Origin: a virus
DNA length: 36,337 nt
Direction: 5' to 3' (one strand)
IMG/VR virus record: IMGVR_UViG_3300013947_000013
Coordinates: 1-36,337 of that record
Part shown: one piece after another, positions 12,573-36,337 of the stretch
Layout: every line of letters begins with the position of its first letter
Position numbering within the stretch: position 1 is the first letter of the stretch
Position numbers and translations under genes: made by a program
Notes under the pieces: generated by a model
What the model was told of the DNA's origin: nothing
The model's input: only the letters and a program-made list of their open reading frames with translations
Databases searched by the model: none

Positions 12573-13991
12573 ATGAAAATAAAAAATACGATATTAGATA
12601 CATTTAAAGATTATGAGTTTTTTGATAGCACTCACACTTATTTCTATAAAGGAAATAGAGTGACTATTAGTACCACAGGTCTTATACACCAATATTCAAA
12701 TGAATTTGATAAATGGGAAATGTCAGCTAATGTAGCTCGTAAAAGAGGAGTTAGTCAAATAGATGTACTGAAAGAGTGGAAAATTGAAAACTTGCATAGT
12801 ACCATCAAAGGATCAATGATTCATGAGTTTGCACAAAGCCTGTGGGAAGGCAAAGATTATATATTCAAATATGATAATTTACCTGATGTTATTAACAAAA
12901 GAAGATTACAAGAAGAATTATGCAATATGAGTAGGCAAGCCATTAATTTCTACAATGATTATAAAGATATGTATGAATTAATAGGCTGTGAAATATATCT
13001 TGGAGTGCCTGATTATGATGAATGTGGTGCTACGGATATGTTACTTATGAATAAGTTTACAAATGAACTTTTAGTAATTGATTTTAAGAGTAATAAAAAA
13101 ATTGATTATGAAAGTTTCGGACATAAAAAAATGAAAGTTCCTTTACAAAAATATGAAGATTGTAATTATATACATTACTCACTTCAATTGAATGCTTATG
13201 CTTATAAAATTGAGTATATGACAGGAATAAAAGTAAAGGACAAGTTACTAATTTATTTTGATTGTAACAAAGATAACTATGAGGTTATTGAGCCTCTAGA
13301 ACTTCGTAAAGAAGTTATTGAAATATATGAAAATAGGAGAGTGAAAAATATGAATAGTGTACCAGTACTATTAATTGGTAAAAGTGGAAGTGGAAAATCT
13401 GCTTCAATGAGAAATTTTAAGAAAGAAGAAATAGCAATAGTAAATGTTTTGGGTAAACCATTACCATTTAAAAATGATTTAAAGGCACCTAAATGTGATG
13501 ATTATAAAACTATTTTAGCAGCTATTACAAAAACTGATAAAAAGACAATTGTAATAGATGATGCTAACTATCTTATTACAAATGAGTTTATGGCTAAATC
13601 AAGTATAAAAGGTTTTGATAAGTATAATGAGTTAGCCAATAACTTTTGGAATCTTATACAAGGAATTAAGGCTATCGATGGTGGCAAAACAGTTTACCTT
13701 ATAATGCACGAAGATTGTGATGATGATGGAAATGTAAAACCTAAAACAATAGGCAAACTATTGGATGATAAAGTAAATGTGCAAGGAATGTTTACTGTAT
13801 GTATTAGAAGTATGTTTGAAAATGGAAATTATGTATTTAAACTTAAAACAAATGGTCAAGACTGTGTTAAGACACCAATTGGTATGTTTGATGTTGAAGA
13901 GATAGAAAACGATTTAAAGAAAGTCGATGAAATAGTTAGAGATTATTATGATTTAGATAAAAAAGAAAGTGAGGAAACAAATAATGAATGA
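12573..13991 (+). CDS. Fusion protein: PD-(D/E)xK exonuclease domain plus P-loop (Sak4/AAA_24-like) ATPase domain
   Basis: N-terminal half: GSMIHEF, ATDMLL, VIDFKSNKK, YSLQLNAYAY (QxxxY). C-terminal half: LLIGKSGSGKS (Walker A) and IVIDDANY (Walker B). An internal SD-like GGAGAG sits before Met codon 13350. Confidence 0.6.
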   Translation: MKIKNTILDTFKDYEFFDSTHTYFYKGNRVTISTTGLIHQYSNEFDKWEMSANVARKRGVSQIDVLKEWKIENLHSTIKGSMIHEFAQSLWEGKDYIFKYDNLPDVINKRRLQEELCNMSRQAINFYNDYKDMYELIGCEIYLGVPDYDECGATDMLLMNKFTNELLVIDFKSNKKIDYESFGHKKMKVPLQKYEDCNYIHYSLQLNAYAYKIEYMTGIKVKDKLLIYFDCNKDNYEVIEPLELRKEVIEIYENRRVKNMNSVPVLLIGKSGSGKSASMRNFKKEEIAIVNVLGKPLPFKNDLKAPKCDDYKTILAAITKTDKKTIVIDDANYLITNEFMAKSSIKGFDKYNELANNFWNLIQGIKAIDGGKTVYLIMHEDCDDDGNVKPKTIGKLLDDKVNVQGMFTVCIRSMFENGNYVFKLKTNGQDCVKTPIGMFDVEEIENDLKKVDEIVRDYYDLDKKESEETNNE

Positions 13992-30602: not shown

Positions 30603-31706
30603 ATGGCAATTTATGATGTTAATTACGATGACAAAAGATTCAAAGATGTCGAAAATGAAAAACAAAGTGAATTAAATAAATATAATGAAACTTATGATAA
30701 TTTAATAAATGAAAGAAATAACTTTACTAAAGAACAACAAGATATGGTTGATAGATGGGAGAACACTCAAAAAGATGTAGCAAATAAAAATCTTGAATAT
30801 CAGAAAGATTTAATCGAACAACAAAGAAAAAAATCTGAACAAGCATATCAAAATGAGGCTAAAGCATCTTATATTGATTATCAAAAAGAAGTTGATAAAT
30901 ATGGTGTTAGTAGAGAAAATGTTGTAAATAATGGATTATCTAATAGTGGTTATGCTGAAAGCTCAAAAGTTGATATGTATAATACTTATCAAAATAGACT
31001 TGGTACTGCAAGAAAGAGTATGCAAGATGCTGGAATAGAGTTTGATAATGCAATTAGACAAGCACAATTATCTAACGATGAAACACTAGCCCAAAATGCT
31101 TTAAAAGCATTACAAGATAAATTAAATATTGCATTAGAAGGATTTAATTATAAATCAGATCAGGAAAATAATAGATTGAATTGGAATAATACGATTAATA
31201 ATAATTATTACAACAGATATAAAGATGTTGAAAGTCAAATTAATTATGAAAATGAAACTGCTGAGAAAATTAGACAATACAATGAGAATATGGCTTATCA
31301 AAAGGAACAACAAAGATTAGAACAACAAAGATGGGAACAACAAATGGCATACCAAAGAGAACAAGATGCTATTGCTAATGCTCAAAAATGGGCTAGTATA
31401 AATGCTAGTTACAGCAGTGGTGGAAGTTCTTTGTCAGATGGTGGAAGCCTTAATGATGGTGGCAATAGTAGTTCTTCTAGTAGTTCGTCATCAAATAACA
31501 ATTTAATAAAGAGTAAATATAATAGTTGTCCAGCATTATCTAGCAAAAAAGCTAATAACTGGTCTAATTCTAATATATTTACTTCTAATACTATAAAAAA
31601 TGGTATTTCTGAATCTGAATTAGAAAGAAAAATATCTGCAGGTTTAAAAAATAAATCTATTACTAAAAAAGATGCAGATAAAATATTAACTTGGTTTGGC
31701 CTATAA
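30603..31706 (+). CDS. Coiled-coil, Q/N-rich putative internal virion protein with a Ser-rich tract
   Basis: 367 aa with long heptad-like Q/E/K-rich regions and SSGGSSLSDGGSLNDGGNSSSSSSSSS. Lies directly upstream of the giant gene. Confidence 0.4.
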   Translation: MAIYDVNYDDKRFKDVENEKQSELNKYNETYDNLINERNNFTKEQQDMVDRWENTQKDVANKNLEYQKDLIEQQRKKSEQAYQNEAKASYIDYQKEVDKYGVSRENVVNNGLSNSGYAESSKVDMYNTYQNRLGTARKSMQDAGIEFDNAIRQAQLSNDETLAQNALKALQDKLNIALEGFNYKSDQENNRLNWNNTINNNYYNRYKDVESQINYENETAEKIRQYNENMAYQKEQQRLEQQRWEQQMAYQREQDAIANAQKWASINASYSSGGSSLSDGGSLNDGGNSSSSSSSSSNNNLIKSKYNSCPALSSKKANNWSNSNIFTSNTIKNGISESELERKISAGLKNKSITKKDADKILTWFGL

Positions 31707-31718
31707 GGTGGTGATTAT

Positions 31719-34700
31719 ATGAGTAGTATTCGAGAGAGATTACTTGGGAAATCAAAAAGAAATTCTAGTATAAGAGATAGACTAGAATTGAATAGTTCAT
31801 ATTATAAACAAGAATATAATGATCAATTATCAAAAAGAAATAATATTCAAAAAGATATACAAAAAAACACTTATGAAAAGGGAGTTCAAACTACAGTAAC
31901 TCCTTTTTCAACACAAAGAAATATTTTACCTATTCAAGAACAGACTGAAATTACTAAAAACAAAAGATTTGAAGTAACTGCTGGTCAAGATAAATTGGGG
32001 CAAAATAAAAGCATAGAAAATAAGTATCAAGAAATAAAAAAATCAAATGAATATAAAAATCAGATGAAACAATTAGAAGAGCAATCAAATGAAGTTGGTT
32101 ATGCTAAATATAATTACGATAAACAAAGAATTGCAGAAGATGATATTGGCTGGTATGATAAATCTATAGGAAGACTTACAGGCGGTATAGGAAGCCTTTT
32201 TGATTATAATGGTGGATTAATAAAAAATGAAAATGGTGACTTAGAATATTTACCTACATTTAATCAAATGAAACACCAAAAAGTTAAAGAAAATTATAAA
32301 ACTGGTATAGGTAGATTTGTTGGTGATGTTTTATATGAAAGTGGTAAAATAGCGGGATCAACATTGATTAATCAAGCTTTACCTGGTGTTGGTTCTACTA
32401 TGTATTTTGGAAAAATGTTTGTGGATAGTACCAATCAAGCGGTTTCAGATGGTTATGATACTAGTAGTGCTACAATGTATGGTTTGGTTAATGTTGGACT
32501 TGAATATGGTGTTGGTAAGATGCTCGGTAGTGCAACTAAAGGATTGACTGGAGGCAAGACTAGTGAATATGAAAAATTACTAAAAGAAACATTTACTAAT
32601 ATAACAAAGAAGCCTAAAATTGCAAATATTTTAGCAAATGCAGGCAGTGAGGCTACTGAAGAATTTGTTCAAGAATATTTAGATAATATTAGTAAATTGC
32701 TTATTTTAGATAAAAATACTAATATTAAAGATTATGCTTCTGTTTTCTTAGATGGTGGTGTACTTTCTGATGCTTTATATTCTGCTGCTATAGGTGGTGT
32801 TACAGGTGGAATTATAGGTACTGCTACTGGCAAAGATACAAATGTAGAGAATAAAGATGTAAATCTATATAAAACATTTAAAGAAGAGTTAGAAGAAACA
32901 AAGAAAAATACTACAAACAAAGAAACCATTAATAAAATAGACACAATTATTTCTAATATTAATAGTAATATTAATAATAATTCAAATGTTAATACTAATG
33001 TAGATACGATAACTTCACAAATTAGTGAATATGAAACATTAAAAGAACAAAATAAATTGACTAATGAACAAGAAATAGAATTGAACGAACTTAAGAATCA
33101 ATTAAGTGCTATTCAAAATCAAAATACTGACACAAGTACTTCCATAAAAGAAGAGGCAAACTTACCAACAGTACAAGATATAGTTAATCAAGAAAAATCA
33201 AGACAAAGTGGCCTTAATTTGCCAGTATATAATCAACAAAGTAATGTTAATAACTCTGATAAGGTTATTTTGCCAACTGTGAACGATTTTAATAGTTCTA
33301 GTATAAATATACCTACTAGTGATATAAAGGTTGATATGGCTAAAATAAACCCTGAAATATTAAATGATATTAAAGGATTTAAATTAGGAGATCCTAGTAT
33401 TGAAAGTTATAAAGGTAGTTACATTAAAACAATGTTAAATGAAGTTGGTATAAAAGTGCCTACTGCTATGAATTATGTAAGTGAAGTAAGACCAGACATG
33501 AGTTTTACTACAACTAAAGATTTAACTAGACAACAATATGCTTCAATTGGAAATGCTCTTCAAAAACTAAGAAGTGTAGATGTGACTAGTGTTAATAATG
33601 CTAATTATAGTATTCCAATAGGCAATTATCAATATGTTAAAAGCTCTAATGCAAATATAAATGAATTAAGAAGAACTGCAAGTATGTATTTAAACAATAC
33701 TGCTAGATCGAACAATACTATTAAGTTGCTAGAGAATATAATAAAAGATAGGAATTATATAATAAGATTCAATCCTAATATAACTAATGAACAAGGTGTA
33801 CCTGTTAATGGATTAATTACAAAAGAAAATGGTAAAACTATAATTGAATTAAATCCTAATGCTGATAATTATGTTGAATTTTTGGTTGTTCATGAAATAA
33901 CTCATGACATAGCAACAAAAGAAATGAAGGAATTAATACTTGATTATGCTAAACAAGATCCTGAGTTTGAAAAATCATTAGAATCACTAAAAGAAAGATA
34001 TAAAACTAATGATGTATCAGATGAAGTCGTAGCAGATGTATGCGGTGAATTGTTTGGTAATAGAGAATTTATTCAGTCAGTAGTAGAAAAGAAGCCTAAT
34101 ATATTTAAGAAAATACTAAATAATATTAGAAAATTAGCAGAAAAAATTAAGGGCACTGGTGCTAATGAGTATGTAAGTTTTGTTGAAAAGTTAAAAACTA
34201 TGTGGGAAGATGCTTATTATAGTAATAAGAGTAACCTTAAGAAAACTGAATATATGATGACAGGAATAAAAGGTGCTAGAAATGCTATAAAAAATGATAG
34301 TTATAATCAATTTTTAAATGACAATTATAATAAAGCATTAATATATAAGAAAAATAATATTGAAAATGAGCAAATTCGTAGAAGGACTGGATGGTTTCAA
34401 GACAGCAAAGGTGATTGGAAATTTGAGCTTAGTGATGACGAGGCCAAAATTATTAAGAAATTAGAAAAAAATAATACATATCAATTGAATGAAATATTAA
34501 ACCATAATGATTTATATGAAATGTATCCTAATTTAAAAAATAATAAAGTTAAATTTACTGATTTTGGCATAAGAACTGATGAAGATGGAAAAAAATACAT
34601 AAAAAAAGGTAGAATTAATAATATAACAAATACTATATCATTGAATAATGAATTAATATCTAAGGGAAATGATGCAGTATTAGATACATTAATACACGAG

Positions 34701-36337
34701 ATTCAACATAGAATACAAAAAATTGAAAAGTTTACACAAGGAACTACTTCTGCTATTGGATTTGAAAATTATCAAAATAACTTTGGTGAAAAAGAAGCAA
34801 GAGATACATCAAATAGAAGAAAAATGAACTATGAAACTAGACTCAAAACACCACCTATATCTTCGTTAACTGATAATATAATTGACAAAAACAAAAACAA
34901 ATGGTATTCTTTAAATGAGGTTGAACAAGATGCTCAAGAAAATAATACAATTTCTTCGCAAAATGTATCTGAAAATATTTATAGCAGAGGAAAATTGGGA
35001 AGAAATACCAAAGGACAAGAACTAGAAAATAGTTCTTTTTCTTTCGATAATAAAGGCAGAAAATTATCAAAAGGGCAACAAGAATACTTTAAAGATAGTA
35101 AGGCTAGAGATGAAAATGGAAATTTAAAGGTTTTATATCATGGCACACCAAACGATTTTACTAAATTTAGCTATGATAAATTAGGAACAAATGGAACTTT
35201 GTTAGGTAAAGGATTTTATTTAACTGATGATATTAATGTTGCCAAAGCCTATGCTAGTAAAGGCGAAAAAGGGAAGGTAATGGAATTGTACGCTGACATT
35301 AAAAAGCCTTTAAAATGGGGAGAAAAATCTATTTCTAAACAACAATATAAATCTTTTGTAGAATCAATAAATGAAATTACAAATGGTACGTTGTTTGCTG
35401 ATTACAGTGGTGAATATAGTGAAAAAGGAAGCACACAATATAATTCTACACTGAATGACATATTGATGGATTATGAATATGGTGGAGATGATATTGATTT
35501 AGTATCTGGAATATTAAATACAACTGGTATGTCTTGGAATAAGGGATACAAGATTTTAAAAGATACAACAGGTTATGATGGAATAATAGTTACAACTGAT
35601 GTTTACGATAGTGGTGAAGGTAATGTATATATACCATTTCAAAGTAATCAAATAAAAAATGTGGATAACACTAATCCAACTTCAAATGAAGACATAAGAT
35701 ATTCTCAAAACACTAAAGAATGGAATGAATATTTAAAAGAGAATTTTCCATCAGCAGGAACAAAAACTAAAATGTCTGATATTAAGTTACCTGTTAGGGA
35801 AGATATAGAAAGTAGTTCTAAAAAGAGCAAGATTTTAAATCCAAATGAAATATCAAAATTAACTAAAGAAGATGCCAACACTACACCAATATTACCTAAA
35901 AGAGGAAGTGCAAATAAAGTTAATGATGGCAATAGCCATTTTGCTAAAAACATTAAAGATAAAGTTAATATGCTAAATGTAGAACAAAAGGCTGAAATAC
36001 TTTCAAAAGAAGATGTTAGATATTATGATAAAGTAACTAATAAAGAAAGTTTGGAAAAAGCTTTCAAAAAAATAAATGATGGTGGCAGTTCAGAAACATT
36101 AAGATGGGTAAAACAAGATAGTAAGAATGCAAATGCTACAGATGTAGCAGAAGGCTGGATTTTACTAAAACAATATGCTGATAATGGTGATTATGATAGT
36201 ATGGTAGAAGTTGCTAAAAAAATGAGAGAAATTGGAACAACTGCTGGTCAAACAGTACAGGCATTTAATATTATGGAAAGAATGACACCTGAAGGTATGG
36301 TAAAATATGCTCAATCTGAATTATCTGAAGCTTATGA
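31719..36337 (+). CDS. Giant polyvalent virion protein, N-terminal 1,514 codons plus overlap (ORF open at the window edge; continues at position 1)
   Basis: ATG 31719 follows SD AAGGTGGTG (31705-31713). I read every codon to 36337 and found no stop. HEITH at 33891-33905; HEIQH at 34695-34709; ART-like YHGT...GKGFYLT...GYDGIIV...GEGNVYIPFQSNQIKNV...DIRYS at about 35040-35705. The ORF is not in the supplied track because it has no stop inside the window. Confidence 0.9.
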   Translation, partial: MSSIRERLLGKSKRNSSIRDRLELNSSYYKQEYNDQLSKRNNIQKDIQKNTYEKGVQTTVTPFSTQRNILPIQEQTEITKNKRFEVTAGQDKLGQNKSIENKYQEIKKSNEYKNQMKQLEEQSNEVGYAKYNYDKQRIAEDDIGWYDKSIGRLTGGIGSLFDYNGGLIKNENGDLEYLPTFNQMKHQKVKENYKTGIGRFVGDVLYESGKIAGSTLINQALPGVGSTMYFGKMFVDSTNQAVSDGYDTSSATMYGLVNVGLEYGVGKMLGSATKGLTGGKTSEYEKLLKETFTNITKKPKIANILANAGSEATEEFVQEYLDNISKLLILDKNTNIKDYASVFLDGGVLSDALYSAAIGGVTGGIIGTATGKDTNVENKDVNLYKTFKEELEETKKNTTNKETINKIDTIISNINSNINNNSNVNTNVDTITSQISEYETLKEQNKLTNEQEIELNELKNQLSAIQNQNTDTSTSIKEEANLPTVQDIVNQEKSRQSGLNLPVYNQQSNVNNSDKVILPTVNDFNSSSINIPTSDIKVDMAKINPEILNDIKGFKLGDPSIESYKGSYIKTMLNEVGIKVPTAMNYVSEVRPDMSFTTTKDLTRQQYASIGNALQKLRSVDVTSVNNANYSIPIGNYQYVKSSNANINELRRTASMYLNNTARSNNTIKLLENIIKDRNYIIRFNPNITNEQGVPVNGLITKENGKTIIELNPNADNYVEFLVVHEITHDIATKEMKELILDYAKQDPEFEKSLESLKERYKTNDVSDEVVADVCGELFGNREFIQSVVEKKPNIFKKILNNIRKLAEKIKGTGANEYVSFVEKLKTMWEDAYYSNKSNLKKTEYMMTGIKGARNAIKNDSYNQFLNDNYNKALIYKKNNIENEQIRRRTGWFQDSKGDWKFELSDDEAKIIKKLEKNNTYQLNEILNHNDLYEMYPNLKNNKVKFTDFGIRTDEDGKKYIKKGRINNITNTISLNNELISKGNDAVLDTLIHEIQHRIQKIEKFTQGTTSAIGFENYQNNFGEKEARDTSNRRKMNYETRLKTPPISSLTDNIIDKNKNKWYSLNEVEQDAQENNTISSQNVSENIYSRGKLGRNTKGQELENSSFSFDNKGRKLSKGQQEYFKDSKARDENGNLKVLYHGTPNDFTKFSYDKLGTNGTLLGKGFYLTDDINVAKAYASKGEKGKVMELYADIKKPLKWGEKSISKQQYKSFVESINEITNGTLFADYSGEYSEKGSTQYNSTLNDILMDYEYGGDDIDLVSGILNTTGMSWNKGYKILKDTTGYDGIIVTTDVYDSGEGNVYIPFQSNQIKNVDNTNPTSNEDIRYSQNTKEWNEYLKENFPSAGTKTKMSDIKLPVREDIESSSKKSKILNPNEISKLTKEDANTTPILPKRGSANKVNDGNSHFAKNIKDKVNMLNVEQKAEILSKEDVRYYDKVTNKESLEKAFKKINDGGSSETLRWVKQDSKNANATDVAEGWILLKQYADNGDYDSMVEVAKKMREIGTTAGQTVQAFNIMERMTPEGMVKYAQSELSEAY
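36261..36337 (+). repeat. Right copy of the 77-bp terminal overlap (identical to 1..77)
   Basis: Same as above. The overlap lies inside a coding frame, so it is a linearisation artefact rather than a biological terminal repeat. Confidence 0.95.

Follow-up and report, generated by a model that had tools for sequence, protein, structure and literature searches.

An ART-PolyVal domain in the giant polyvalent protein of a temperate, podovirus-like phage

Does the giant late gene of this phage encode an ADP-ribosyltransferase (ART), which residues would such an enzyme use, and what would the phage gain from carrying it? The question is raised by a viral DNA sequence of 36,337 nucleotides (nt) (IMG/VR virus record IMGVR_UViG_3300013947_000013, positions 1 to 36,337; the whole stretch is called the window here). 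Near its end a first-pass annotation, made from the letters alone, had read residues 1108-1329 of a giant protein as a module of the ART-PolyVal family, with H1141 and E1300 as candidate catalytic residues, and had proposed a nicotinamide adenine dinucleotide (NAD)-dependent effector carried by a virion protein. We find that the domain is almost certainly a genuine ART-PolyVal domain, that it retains the conserved residues of the family, E1300 not being among them, and that it fills one of two adjacent slots whose content differs among sister phages.

Family membership and fold

The features on which the assignment rests are the following.

35040-35705, + strand: ART-PolyVal unit, residues 1108-1329 (N-terminal strand/helix extension, ART core, helical insert and NxxPTxxxDIRYS tail), from PF18760, AlphaFold2 and BFVD
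35109-35681, + strand: stretch matched by Pfam ART-PolyVal (residues 1131-1321, profile positions 1-139 of 140), from hmmscan against Pfam-A
35337-35570, + strand: insert of five helices (residues 1207-1284) that separates core strand 3 from the GYDG strand, from DSSP on the structure model

ART-PolyVal (PF18760; gathering cut-off 31.2 bits) is the top Pfam family, at E 4.5e-25 (89.5 bits) with the whole open reading frame (ORF) and at E 3.5e-27 (96.3 bits) with the stretch of 222 amino acids (aa) alone. The match is full length and well above the cut-off and the conserved residues are retained, so the family name stands. PARP (18.6-23.9 bits against a cut-off of 26.7) and DUF3990, of the same clan as PF18760, match residues 1119-1187 below threshold. 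The numbering of the first-pass annotation was correct, both for residue 1108 (35040-35042) and for the two candidate catalytic residues, and its ordered motifs are present: VLYHGT at 1138-1143, FTKFSY...GKGFYLTDDINVAKAYA at 1147-1179, GYDGI at 1285-1289 and DIRYS at 1325-1329. Its motif of an acid followed by VY was found as E-G-N-VYIPFQSNQIK at 1300-1313, the acid standing two residues further from VY than had been written.

An AlphaFold2 model of the unit, from a 30-sequence alignment, has a mean predicted local distance difference test score (pLDDT) of 91.7 and a predicted template modelling score (pTM) of 0.88. Its core holds the LYHGT strand (1139-1143), a short strand after GFY, a helix (1172-1179) and a strand at 1186-1192, and its C-terminal part a long hairpin (1288-1296 and 1299-1306) followed by a short strand (1312-1314). 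Between the two lie the insert helices (1207-1220, 1224-1230, 1239-1254, 1258-1269 and 1273-1284 by DSSP), because of which 191 residues match a profile of 140 positions. Outside the Pfam model, the N-terminal motif DxxGxxLxxxQxxYFxxS and the C-terminal NxxPTxxxDIRYS are 82-98% conserved in the subfamily.

Among the predicted viral structures of BFVD the model has 79 matches at E<=1e-3 (best 1.7e-14), most of them named ART-PolyVal. In a Foldseek search of the PDB, 33 of the 50 top matches are catalytic domains of PARP1, tankyrase, diphtheria toxin or Tpt1; these fold matches are weak, probably because of the large insert. The second PDB match of the model is an anti-CRISPR crystal structure (6kyf, E 9e-3). 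The top one, the cyanophage A4 pre-ejectosome (9k3a_B, E 1.1e-3, TMq 0.42), we dismissed as evidence: neither Pfam nor hhalign supports it on A4 gp26-28, Pfam finding Peptidase_M23 only in gp26-28 of phage A-4L and an hhalign comparison of gp28 with the ART profile being empty.

The family is large. A phmmer search with the 222-aa unit against 1.84 billion cluster representatives gave 5,790 matches at E<=1e-3 and 242 at E<=1e-30. The best 150 representatives are nearly all of 2,000-4,900 aa, many of them with several copies of the domain (up to 17 matched stretches each). Among cultured phages, tblastn of the domain retrieved 11 records, from Dickeya, Brevibacillus and F116 only. ART-PolyVal was defined in 2017 by Iyer et al., who describe it as the protein-modifying domain that polyvalent proteins carry most often; its prototype is the virion RNA polymerase of Roseovarius Plymouth podovirus 1 (PMC5512222).

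Active-site residues

Conservation was read from an alignment of 163 full-length domain copies, the window copy and 162 from 132 of the 150 best representatives. Near-invariant positions in the N-terminal half are H1141 (96%), G1142 (92%), Y1167 (85%, with Phe in a further 12%), Y1178 (85%), Y1191 (95%) and P1197 (97%); in the C-terminal half they are D1287 (99%), G1288 (94%), Q1311 (97%), K1313 (99%), N1317 (98%) and P1320 (97%). The window domain retains every one of them. Four positions carry the discussion of catalysis.

35139-35141 (CAT), + strand: H1141 of YHGT on strand 1, predicted NAD-binding His, 96% conserved and aligned by hhalign with PARP1 H862 and TNKS2 H1031
35217-35219, + strand: Y1167 of GKGFY on strand 2, predicted nicotinamide-stacking Tyr, aligned by hhalign with PARP1 Y896 and TNKS2 Y1060
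35577-35579, + strand: D1287 of GYDG, the invariant acid of the family, present in 162 of 163 copies
35616-35618 (GAA), + strand: E1300, just past the hairpin turn, at a non-conserved position (18% identical, 30% acidic, Gly commonest, in 162-163 copies)

The catalytic pair that had been proposed is thus half retained: H1141 is conserved and aligned with the PARP1 His, and E1300 gives way to D1287 as the invariant acid. Y1167 had not been named in that proposal, and hhalign also pairs Y1178 with PARP1 Y907 and TNKS2 Y1071. Only the N-terminal, NAD-binding half can be aligned with PARP1 and TNKS2 in this way, so profile alignment does not fix the third catalytic residue.

The published active site of ART-PolyVal, which was placed in the Tox-ART-HYD2 clade, has a His on strand 1, a Tyr on strand 2 and an Asp on strand 5 (H-Y-D; PMC5512222), and papers from the Aravind group in 2012 and 2022 do not specify which Asp is meant (PMC3482391, PMC9503650). 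To judge from its conservation, D1287 is most likely that residue. In the model it stands directly before the first strand of the terminal hairpin, and its equivalent is kept in Dickeya JA11_190, Brevibacillus Jenst_175 and Pseudomonas F116 gp60.

A different placement follows from the PARPs, where the catalytic Glu (PARP1 E988) has the conserved Gln (Q996) at +8. If Q1311 is equated with Q996 by motif spacing, the Glu slot falls on V1303 (35625-35627). A PARP-type H-Y-E arrangement, with Glu eight residues before the conserved Gln, is therefore not what the window has, E1300 lying three residues upstream of the slot. Across the family the slot holds V in 48, I in 37, E in 33 and Q in 9 copies. 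A profile search of PDB sequences returned weak matches to PARP12, PARP4 and PARP10 (E 0.03-1.7). The weak HMMER alignment with PARP4 and the spacing in tankyrase suggest that GYDG corresponds to the GYDS/GHHS strand of PARPs, VYIPF to the Glu-bearing strand and NQIK to the segment of the conserved Gln. On this equivalence the domain would resemble the mono-ADP-ribosylating PARPs of H-Y-hydrophobic type, with D1287 an extra, family-specific invariant. Human PARPs with H-Y-I/L/Y, which lack the Glu, are still active mono-ARTs. Whether D1287 or the PARP-like slot is taken as the site of the third residue, a catalytic role for E1300 is not supported.

The variable payload region and the giant protein

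The locus was retrieved on 15 metagenomic contigs by look-up with the 367-aa gene upstream of the giant gene. On five independent contigs (L001-L005) a 2,364-aa gene of equal length is called and marked LPD23 plus ART-PolyVal, and the giant protein of the window is 100% identical to those on L002, L004 and L005. Others of these related (pro)phages differ in the middle of the gene, as the following features and blastn limits (in window coordinates) describe.

34241-35713, + strand: variable payload region, residues ~842-1332 (LPD23, second HExxH module, ART), swapped in sister phages, from blastn
34341-34451, + strand: LPD23 at residues 875-911 (Pfam PF18838, large polyvalent-protein-associated domain 23; 34 bits, cut-off 27)
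34695-34709, + strand: second HExxH, read from the sequence as HEIQH at residues 993-997, a putative zincin-like metallopeptidase of the cassette
35019-35039, + strand: junction ELENSSF, residues 1101-1107, directly upstream of the ART slot, from comparison of sister contigs
L006: DNA homology stops at 34240 and resumes at 35714 (L006 segment 4288-4899)
L010: DNA homology stops at 34240 and resumes at 35699 (L010 segment 848-1852)
L009: DNA homology stops at 34245 and resumes at 35696
L008: DNA homology stops at 34540 and resumes at 35696

The protein of L006 is 97-98% identical to that of the window over residues 1-841 and 1319-2364, and residues ~842-1332 are replaced there by about 200 residues that have a sub-threshold LPD3 match and no ART. 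The flanks of L010 are 94-97% identical to the window, and those of L008 and L009 49-76%. L008 keeps the LPD23/HEIQH part, after which come an ELxNSSF junction and a different module of ~165 residues; L009 joins an LPD3-like part to the same ~165-residue module. That module (giant residues ~1065-1235 in L008 and ~1070-1235 in L009) reads AYRG, with Arg for the family His, then GLGLYTT..YAKKYG and GYDG. It has no Pfam match; hhalign against the ART profile gives 58.6% probability and E 9.5e-5 over 30 columns, and it may be a divergent ART-like paralogue.

The junction of the window recurs in three of these genes (ELENSSF/YKEWN in L006, ELDNSSF in L008, ELNNSSF in L009), with different content after each, and the right breakpoint, at 35696-35714, is common to L006, L008, L009 and L010. 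The ART unit (35040-35705) coincides with the second slot, its right boundary being the common breakpoint. At least four combinations of two adjacent cassettes occur among the related (pro)phages: LPD23-zincin with the ART of the window, LPD23-zincin with the divergent Arg-for-His module, the LPD3-like part with the divergent module, and the LPD3-like part alone. Because L008 and L009 mix payload parts, the two slots assort independently. The window ART is also 82-84% identical to ARTs of giant proteins whose flanking scaffolds are 28-35% identical, so that the module is far better conserved than the scaffolds, which argues for selection on the ART itself.

In ART-bearing giant proteins a short motif, phi-[KR]-[YFH]-S-phi, occurs 208 times against 21 expected from shuffling, an enrichment of about tenfold. 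Of these occurrences 127 are at ART C-termini and 35 just upstream of an ART; the window copy is IRYS at 35694-35705. It may serve as a linker, mark a recombination junction or be cut by a peptidase.

These observations can be joined into a single picture, in which the ART is one allele of a two-slot, swappable payload locus within a conserved ejection-type scaffold and has non-canonical catalysis. As a whole we regard it as less likely than not. Haplotypes would recombine at ELxNSSF and [KR]YSQxxKEWN in a shuffling of effectors like that of polymorphic-toxin tips, driven by the diversity of host defences; the family may use H and Y with the GYDG Asp and a hydrophobic residue in the PARP-Glu slot; and the phi-[KR]-[YF]-S junction might be a cleavage site of the co-resident metallopeptidases.

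The remainder of the giant protein has these features.

31719-36337, + strand: 5′ portion of the giant polyvalent-protein gene, 4,619 nt long, which holds residues 1-1539 and two bases of codon 1540, from an ATG that follows a stop codon and a GGTGGTGA ribosome-binding-like stretch
78-2553, + strand: continuation of the giant gene (last base of codon 1540, residues 1541-2364, TGA), from circularised translation
33891-34025, + strand: first HExxH...E motif, with H725, E726, H729 and E769 unchanged across 18 homologous segments, a candidate gluzincin-type metallopeptidase of the conserved scaffold

From ATG 31719 the giant ORF runs past the end of the window and continues over the circular junction to a TGA at 2553, which makes 2,364 aa; an '846-aa ORF' listed separately at 13-2553 is its C-terminal part. 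At 90% protein identity its cluster counts 77 members, which come from metagenomes only, with no NCBI or UniRef entry among them; they lie on contigs of up to 680 kb and are unnamed or called 'hypothetical'. LPD23, two HExxH modules and an ART thus stand together in a 2,364-aa protein of a phage that also bears terminase, portal, capsid, integrase and lysin genes, as is expected of a polyvalent protein. The stretch of residues 813-1046 has counterparts, 24-28% identical, in the giant proteins of F116-like Pseudomonas phages. With the N- and C-terminal scaffold as queries, a search of PDB sequences returned nothing, leaving the scaffold with no detectable solved relative; PHROGs placed the giant protein in families of 'unknown function' only, and NCBIfam gave nothing useful.

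The first HExxH module was modelled as three strands followed by the HExxH helix (pLDDT 79); its fold search gave no significant match, the hits being helical-bundle noise with MATCAP at E 0.5. A scaffold module at residues 600-840 (window 33516-34238), with an invariant HExxH and a Glu 40 residues downstream, recurs in 25 of 150 related giants. It probably corresponds to the zincin-like peptidase of polyvalent proteins, a call made on the motif, with no confirming Pfam or PDB fold match. The second module has weak SprT-like and DUF3920 matches below threshold. Two glycine-rich hydrophobic stretches (Kyte-Doolittle mean >1.2 over 19 residues), at residues ~348-366 (window 32760-32816) and ~1853-1878 (window ~940-1017), are candidates for membrane insertion during ejection.

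Phage setting, proposed role and comparison with known systems

Positions 1-77 of the window are identical to 36261-36337, and because of this 77-nt terminal overlap we take the window as a complete circular phage genome of ~36,260 bp; the circularised 36,260-bp genome is 28% GC. The structural genes run in the order TerS, TerL, a P22-like portal (66 bits), a scaffold-sized protein, the major head protein, an SU10-type adaptor (29 bits against a cut-off of 27), a 576-aa protein, a 367-aa protein, the giant gene and tail proteins. The last, 3′ of the giant gene, match PHROG tail families, DUF859 and a T4 Gp10_C-like family. Further genes encode an M23/amidase endolysin, an integrase, a repressor, a Sak4/exonuclease protein, a primase-helicase and an ERCC4 nuclease. 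The phage is temperate and podovirus-like, and the profile matches of its genes include no signature of a tail tube, sheath, chaperone or tape measure. Its giant gene lies between the head-tail adaptor and the tail-fibre genes, in the late structural block, a position at which P22-like phages encode ejection proteins. No macro or ARH antidote gene was found among the phage genes.

Two of these loci deserve a remark. A 472-aa ORF (window 12573-13991) has an exonuclease-like N-terminus (phrog_298) and a Sak4-like single-strand annealing C-terminus (phrog_2872), a fused recombination module. The 367-aa protein (window 30603-31706), which adjoins the giant gene upstream, has no PHROG and a sub-threshold AlkZ-related Pfam match (E 5e-4, 20 bits against a cut-off of 26.5); together with the 576-aa protein before it, likewise unassigned, it stands where nozzle or tail-hub proteins would be expected.

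Relatives of the giant protein occur in human-gut metagenome-assembled genomes (MAGs) labelled Bacilli, Mollicutes and Tenericutes, and a 486-kb contig of a Bacilli MAG holds a syntenic related prophage with its giant gene at the equivalent position. The hosts are apparently uncultured bacteria of the human gut, of the Bacilli, 'Mollicutes' or 'Tenericutes'. Genetic code 4 (UGA = Trp), which the 'Mollicutes' labels brought into consideration, was ruled out: TGA terminates several genes, the giant among them, so the standard bacterial code applies. A megablast of the structural block matched no cultured phage.

On the reading that we prefer, the domain is a swappable NAD-dependent ART payload of a virion-delivered giant protein and acts on the host; for the whole of this chain our confidence is only slightly above even. 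The giant protein would be made late, with the structural proteins, be packed into the capsid as an internal protein of ejection type and be delivered into the cell together with the DNA, possibly cutting itself by its HExxH peptidase modules. The ART would then bind NAD+ through H1141, G1142, Y1167 and Y1178 and, early in infection, put a single ADP-ribose on a host macromolecule, most likely a protein, with host takeover or the neutralisation of a defence as its purpose. We infer the status of virion protein and effector from the position of the gene and from the published model, in which polyvalent proteins are predicted to be packaged in the virion and injected by analogy with T4 Alt (PMC5512222; restated in 2022, PMC9503650).

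Several points weigh against this reading. No biochemical characterisation of any ART-PolyVal member was found in the literature searched, packaging is argued from synteny, and the HExxH modules are called peptidases on their motifs. The PDB matches to ARTs are individually non-significant (E 0.4-2.2, TMq 0.22-0.34). The ART is accessory, since sister phages exist without it. The slot of the PARP Glu, as anchored by motif spacing, holds V1303 and has N1302 as its neighbour, and across the family an acid stands at that slot or one residue earlier in 62 of 162 copies (38%) and within four residues in 118 of 162. V1303 and N1302, with the non-conserved position of E1300 and the dispensability of the domain in sister phages, would also suit a catalytically dead ART fold, a pseudo-enzyme that serves as a structural or binding module. 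We think this very unlikely, given that the near-invariant H, G, Y, Y and D are all kept in the window ART, that PARPs without the Glu remain active mono-ARTs, and that a module at 84% identity on scaffolds at 35% argues for selection on the module.

An active enzyme might have another substrate and be an NADase, or it might, like DarT and Tpt1/KptA of the same superfamily, modify nucleic acid, such as the DNA of the host or of a rival, tRNA or the ends of RNA. Enzymes that act on DNA, on RNA or on NAD all belong to the ART superfamily (PMC9503650), a Tpt1 structure appears at rank 45 of the PDB fold matches, the hydrophobic Glu slot goes with the unusual invariants D1287, Q1311 and K1313, and the data name no target for the module. 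Against this, outside the family the nearest relatives by sequence and profile are PARPs that modify proteins, Iyer et al. group ART-PolyVal with protein-modifying ARTs (PMC5512222) and NADase-type ARTs are reported to be under-represented in viruses (PMC9503650), so that we consider such an activity unlikely, if not strongly so. As packaging is a synteny-based argument, the giant protein could also be an external tail or baseplate protein, a tape-measure-like protein or a late protein outside the virion, its ART acting extracellularly or in the producer cell only. PHROGs puts related giants in 'unknown function' or 'tail protein' families, DUF859, found downstream of the giant, is named for siphoviruses, and the sole pre-ejectosome fold match (9k3a_B) is uncorroborated. 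A quite unlikely account, in our judgement: signatures of tube, sheath, chaperone and tape measure are absent from the gene profiles, the P22-like portal and SU10-like adaptor are both of podovirus types, NAD-dependent chemistry requires cytoplasm, and the glycine-rich hydrophobic segments near 348 and 1853-1878 would be typical of ejection proteins that insert into membranes.

ART-PolyVal is among the commonest predicted enzymatic payloads of the giant proteins of phages and conjugative elements, and its activity, target and delivery rest on the computational prediction of 2017. Earlier work had described the family, its architecture and the role predicted for it, and the window copy leaves that knowledge unchanged; the polymorphism of the slot is a new observation, and a modest one. 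The phage is a compact and tractable case, with a temperate genome of 36 kb and well-defined domain boundaries, and natural near-isogenic variants with and without the ART would allow host range or defence evasion to be compared.

How does the window domain compare with systems already described? Like other members of PF18760 it has YHGT, GxGFY and GYDG and stands inside a giant protein with HExxH and LPD modules; compared with the Pfam model it adds the ~78-residue five-helix insert and the conserved N- and C-terminal extensions, both of them subfamily-wide, and, unlike the prototype, the window giant has no RNA polymerase module. Pseudomonas phage F116 is likewise a temperate podovirus. Its gp60 (1,649 aa), to which giant proteins of Hollowayvirus are related, has ART-PolyVal matches (95.7 and 21.1 bits with a local hidden Markov model) and shares with the window giant the LPD23/HExxH region, at 24-28% identity. 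F116 differs in its proteobacterial host, in the Glu at its PARP-Glu slot (REFVVF, where the window has V1303) and in a much shorter insert.

The Tox-ART-HYD2 polymorphic toxins (PMC3482391), in whose clade Iyer et al. placed the family, are similar in that both are exchangeable effector cassettes on a conserved carrier. Their cassette is C-terminal, whereas that of the window is internal and has no evident immunity gene; this likeness is drawn from published descriptions. With PARPs of the PARP4, PARP10 and PARP12 type and with tankyrase, the NAD-binding half (H...GxGxYF...Y) aligns, and GYDS/GHHS...(E/I)FVVY...NQVK of PARPs resembles GYDG...VYIPF..NQIK of the window at almost equal spacing. 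In several mono-ADP-ribosylating PARPs the Glu slot is occupied by a hydrophobic residue. The matches to PARPs are below family thresholds, their C-terminal half is not alignable by hhalign, and the window ART lacks the PARP regulatory domains.

T4 Alt, which the window ART would resemble in its way of working, is an ART packaged in the head that is injected with the DNA and modifies host proteins (PMC5512222). It belongs to the R-S-E (Alt/VIP2) clade and is a stand-alone protein, whereas the window ART is of H-Y type; Pfam, PHROG and NCBIfam matched no R-S-E Alt/VIP2 or ART-toxin profile, the R-S-E type being marked by R, S-T-S and E-x-E catalytic motifs, in the giant protein, and no sequence similarity to Alt was seen. 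T4 Alt is the closest functional analogue and not a relative; by descent, the closest are ART-PolyVal domains of the F116 gp60 type and the PARP-like H-Y-E/D ARTs.

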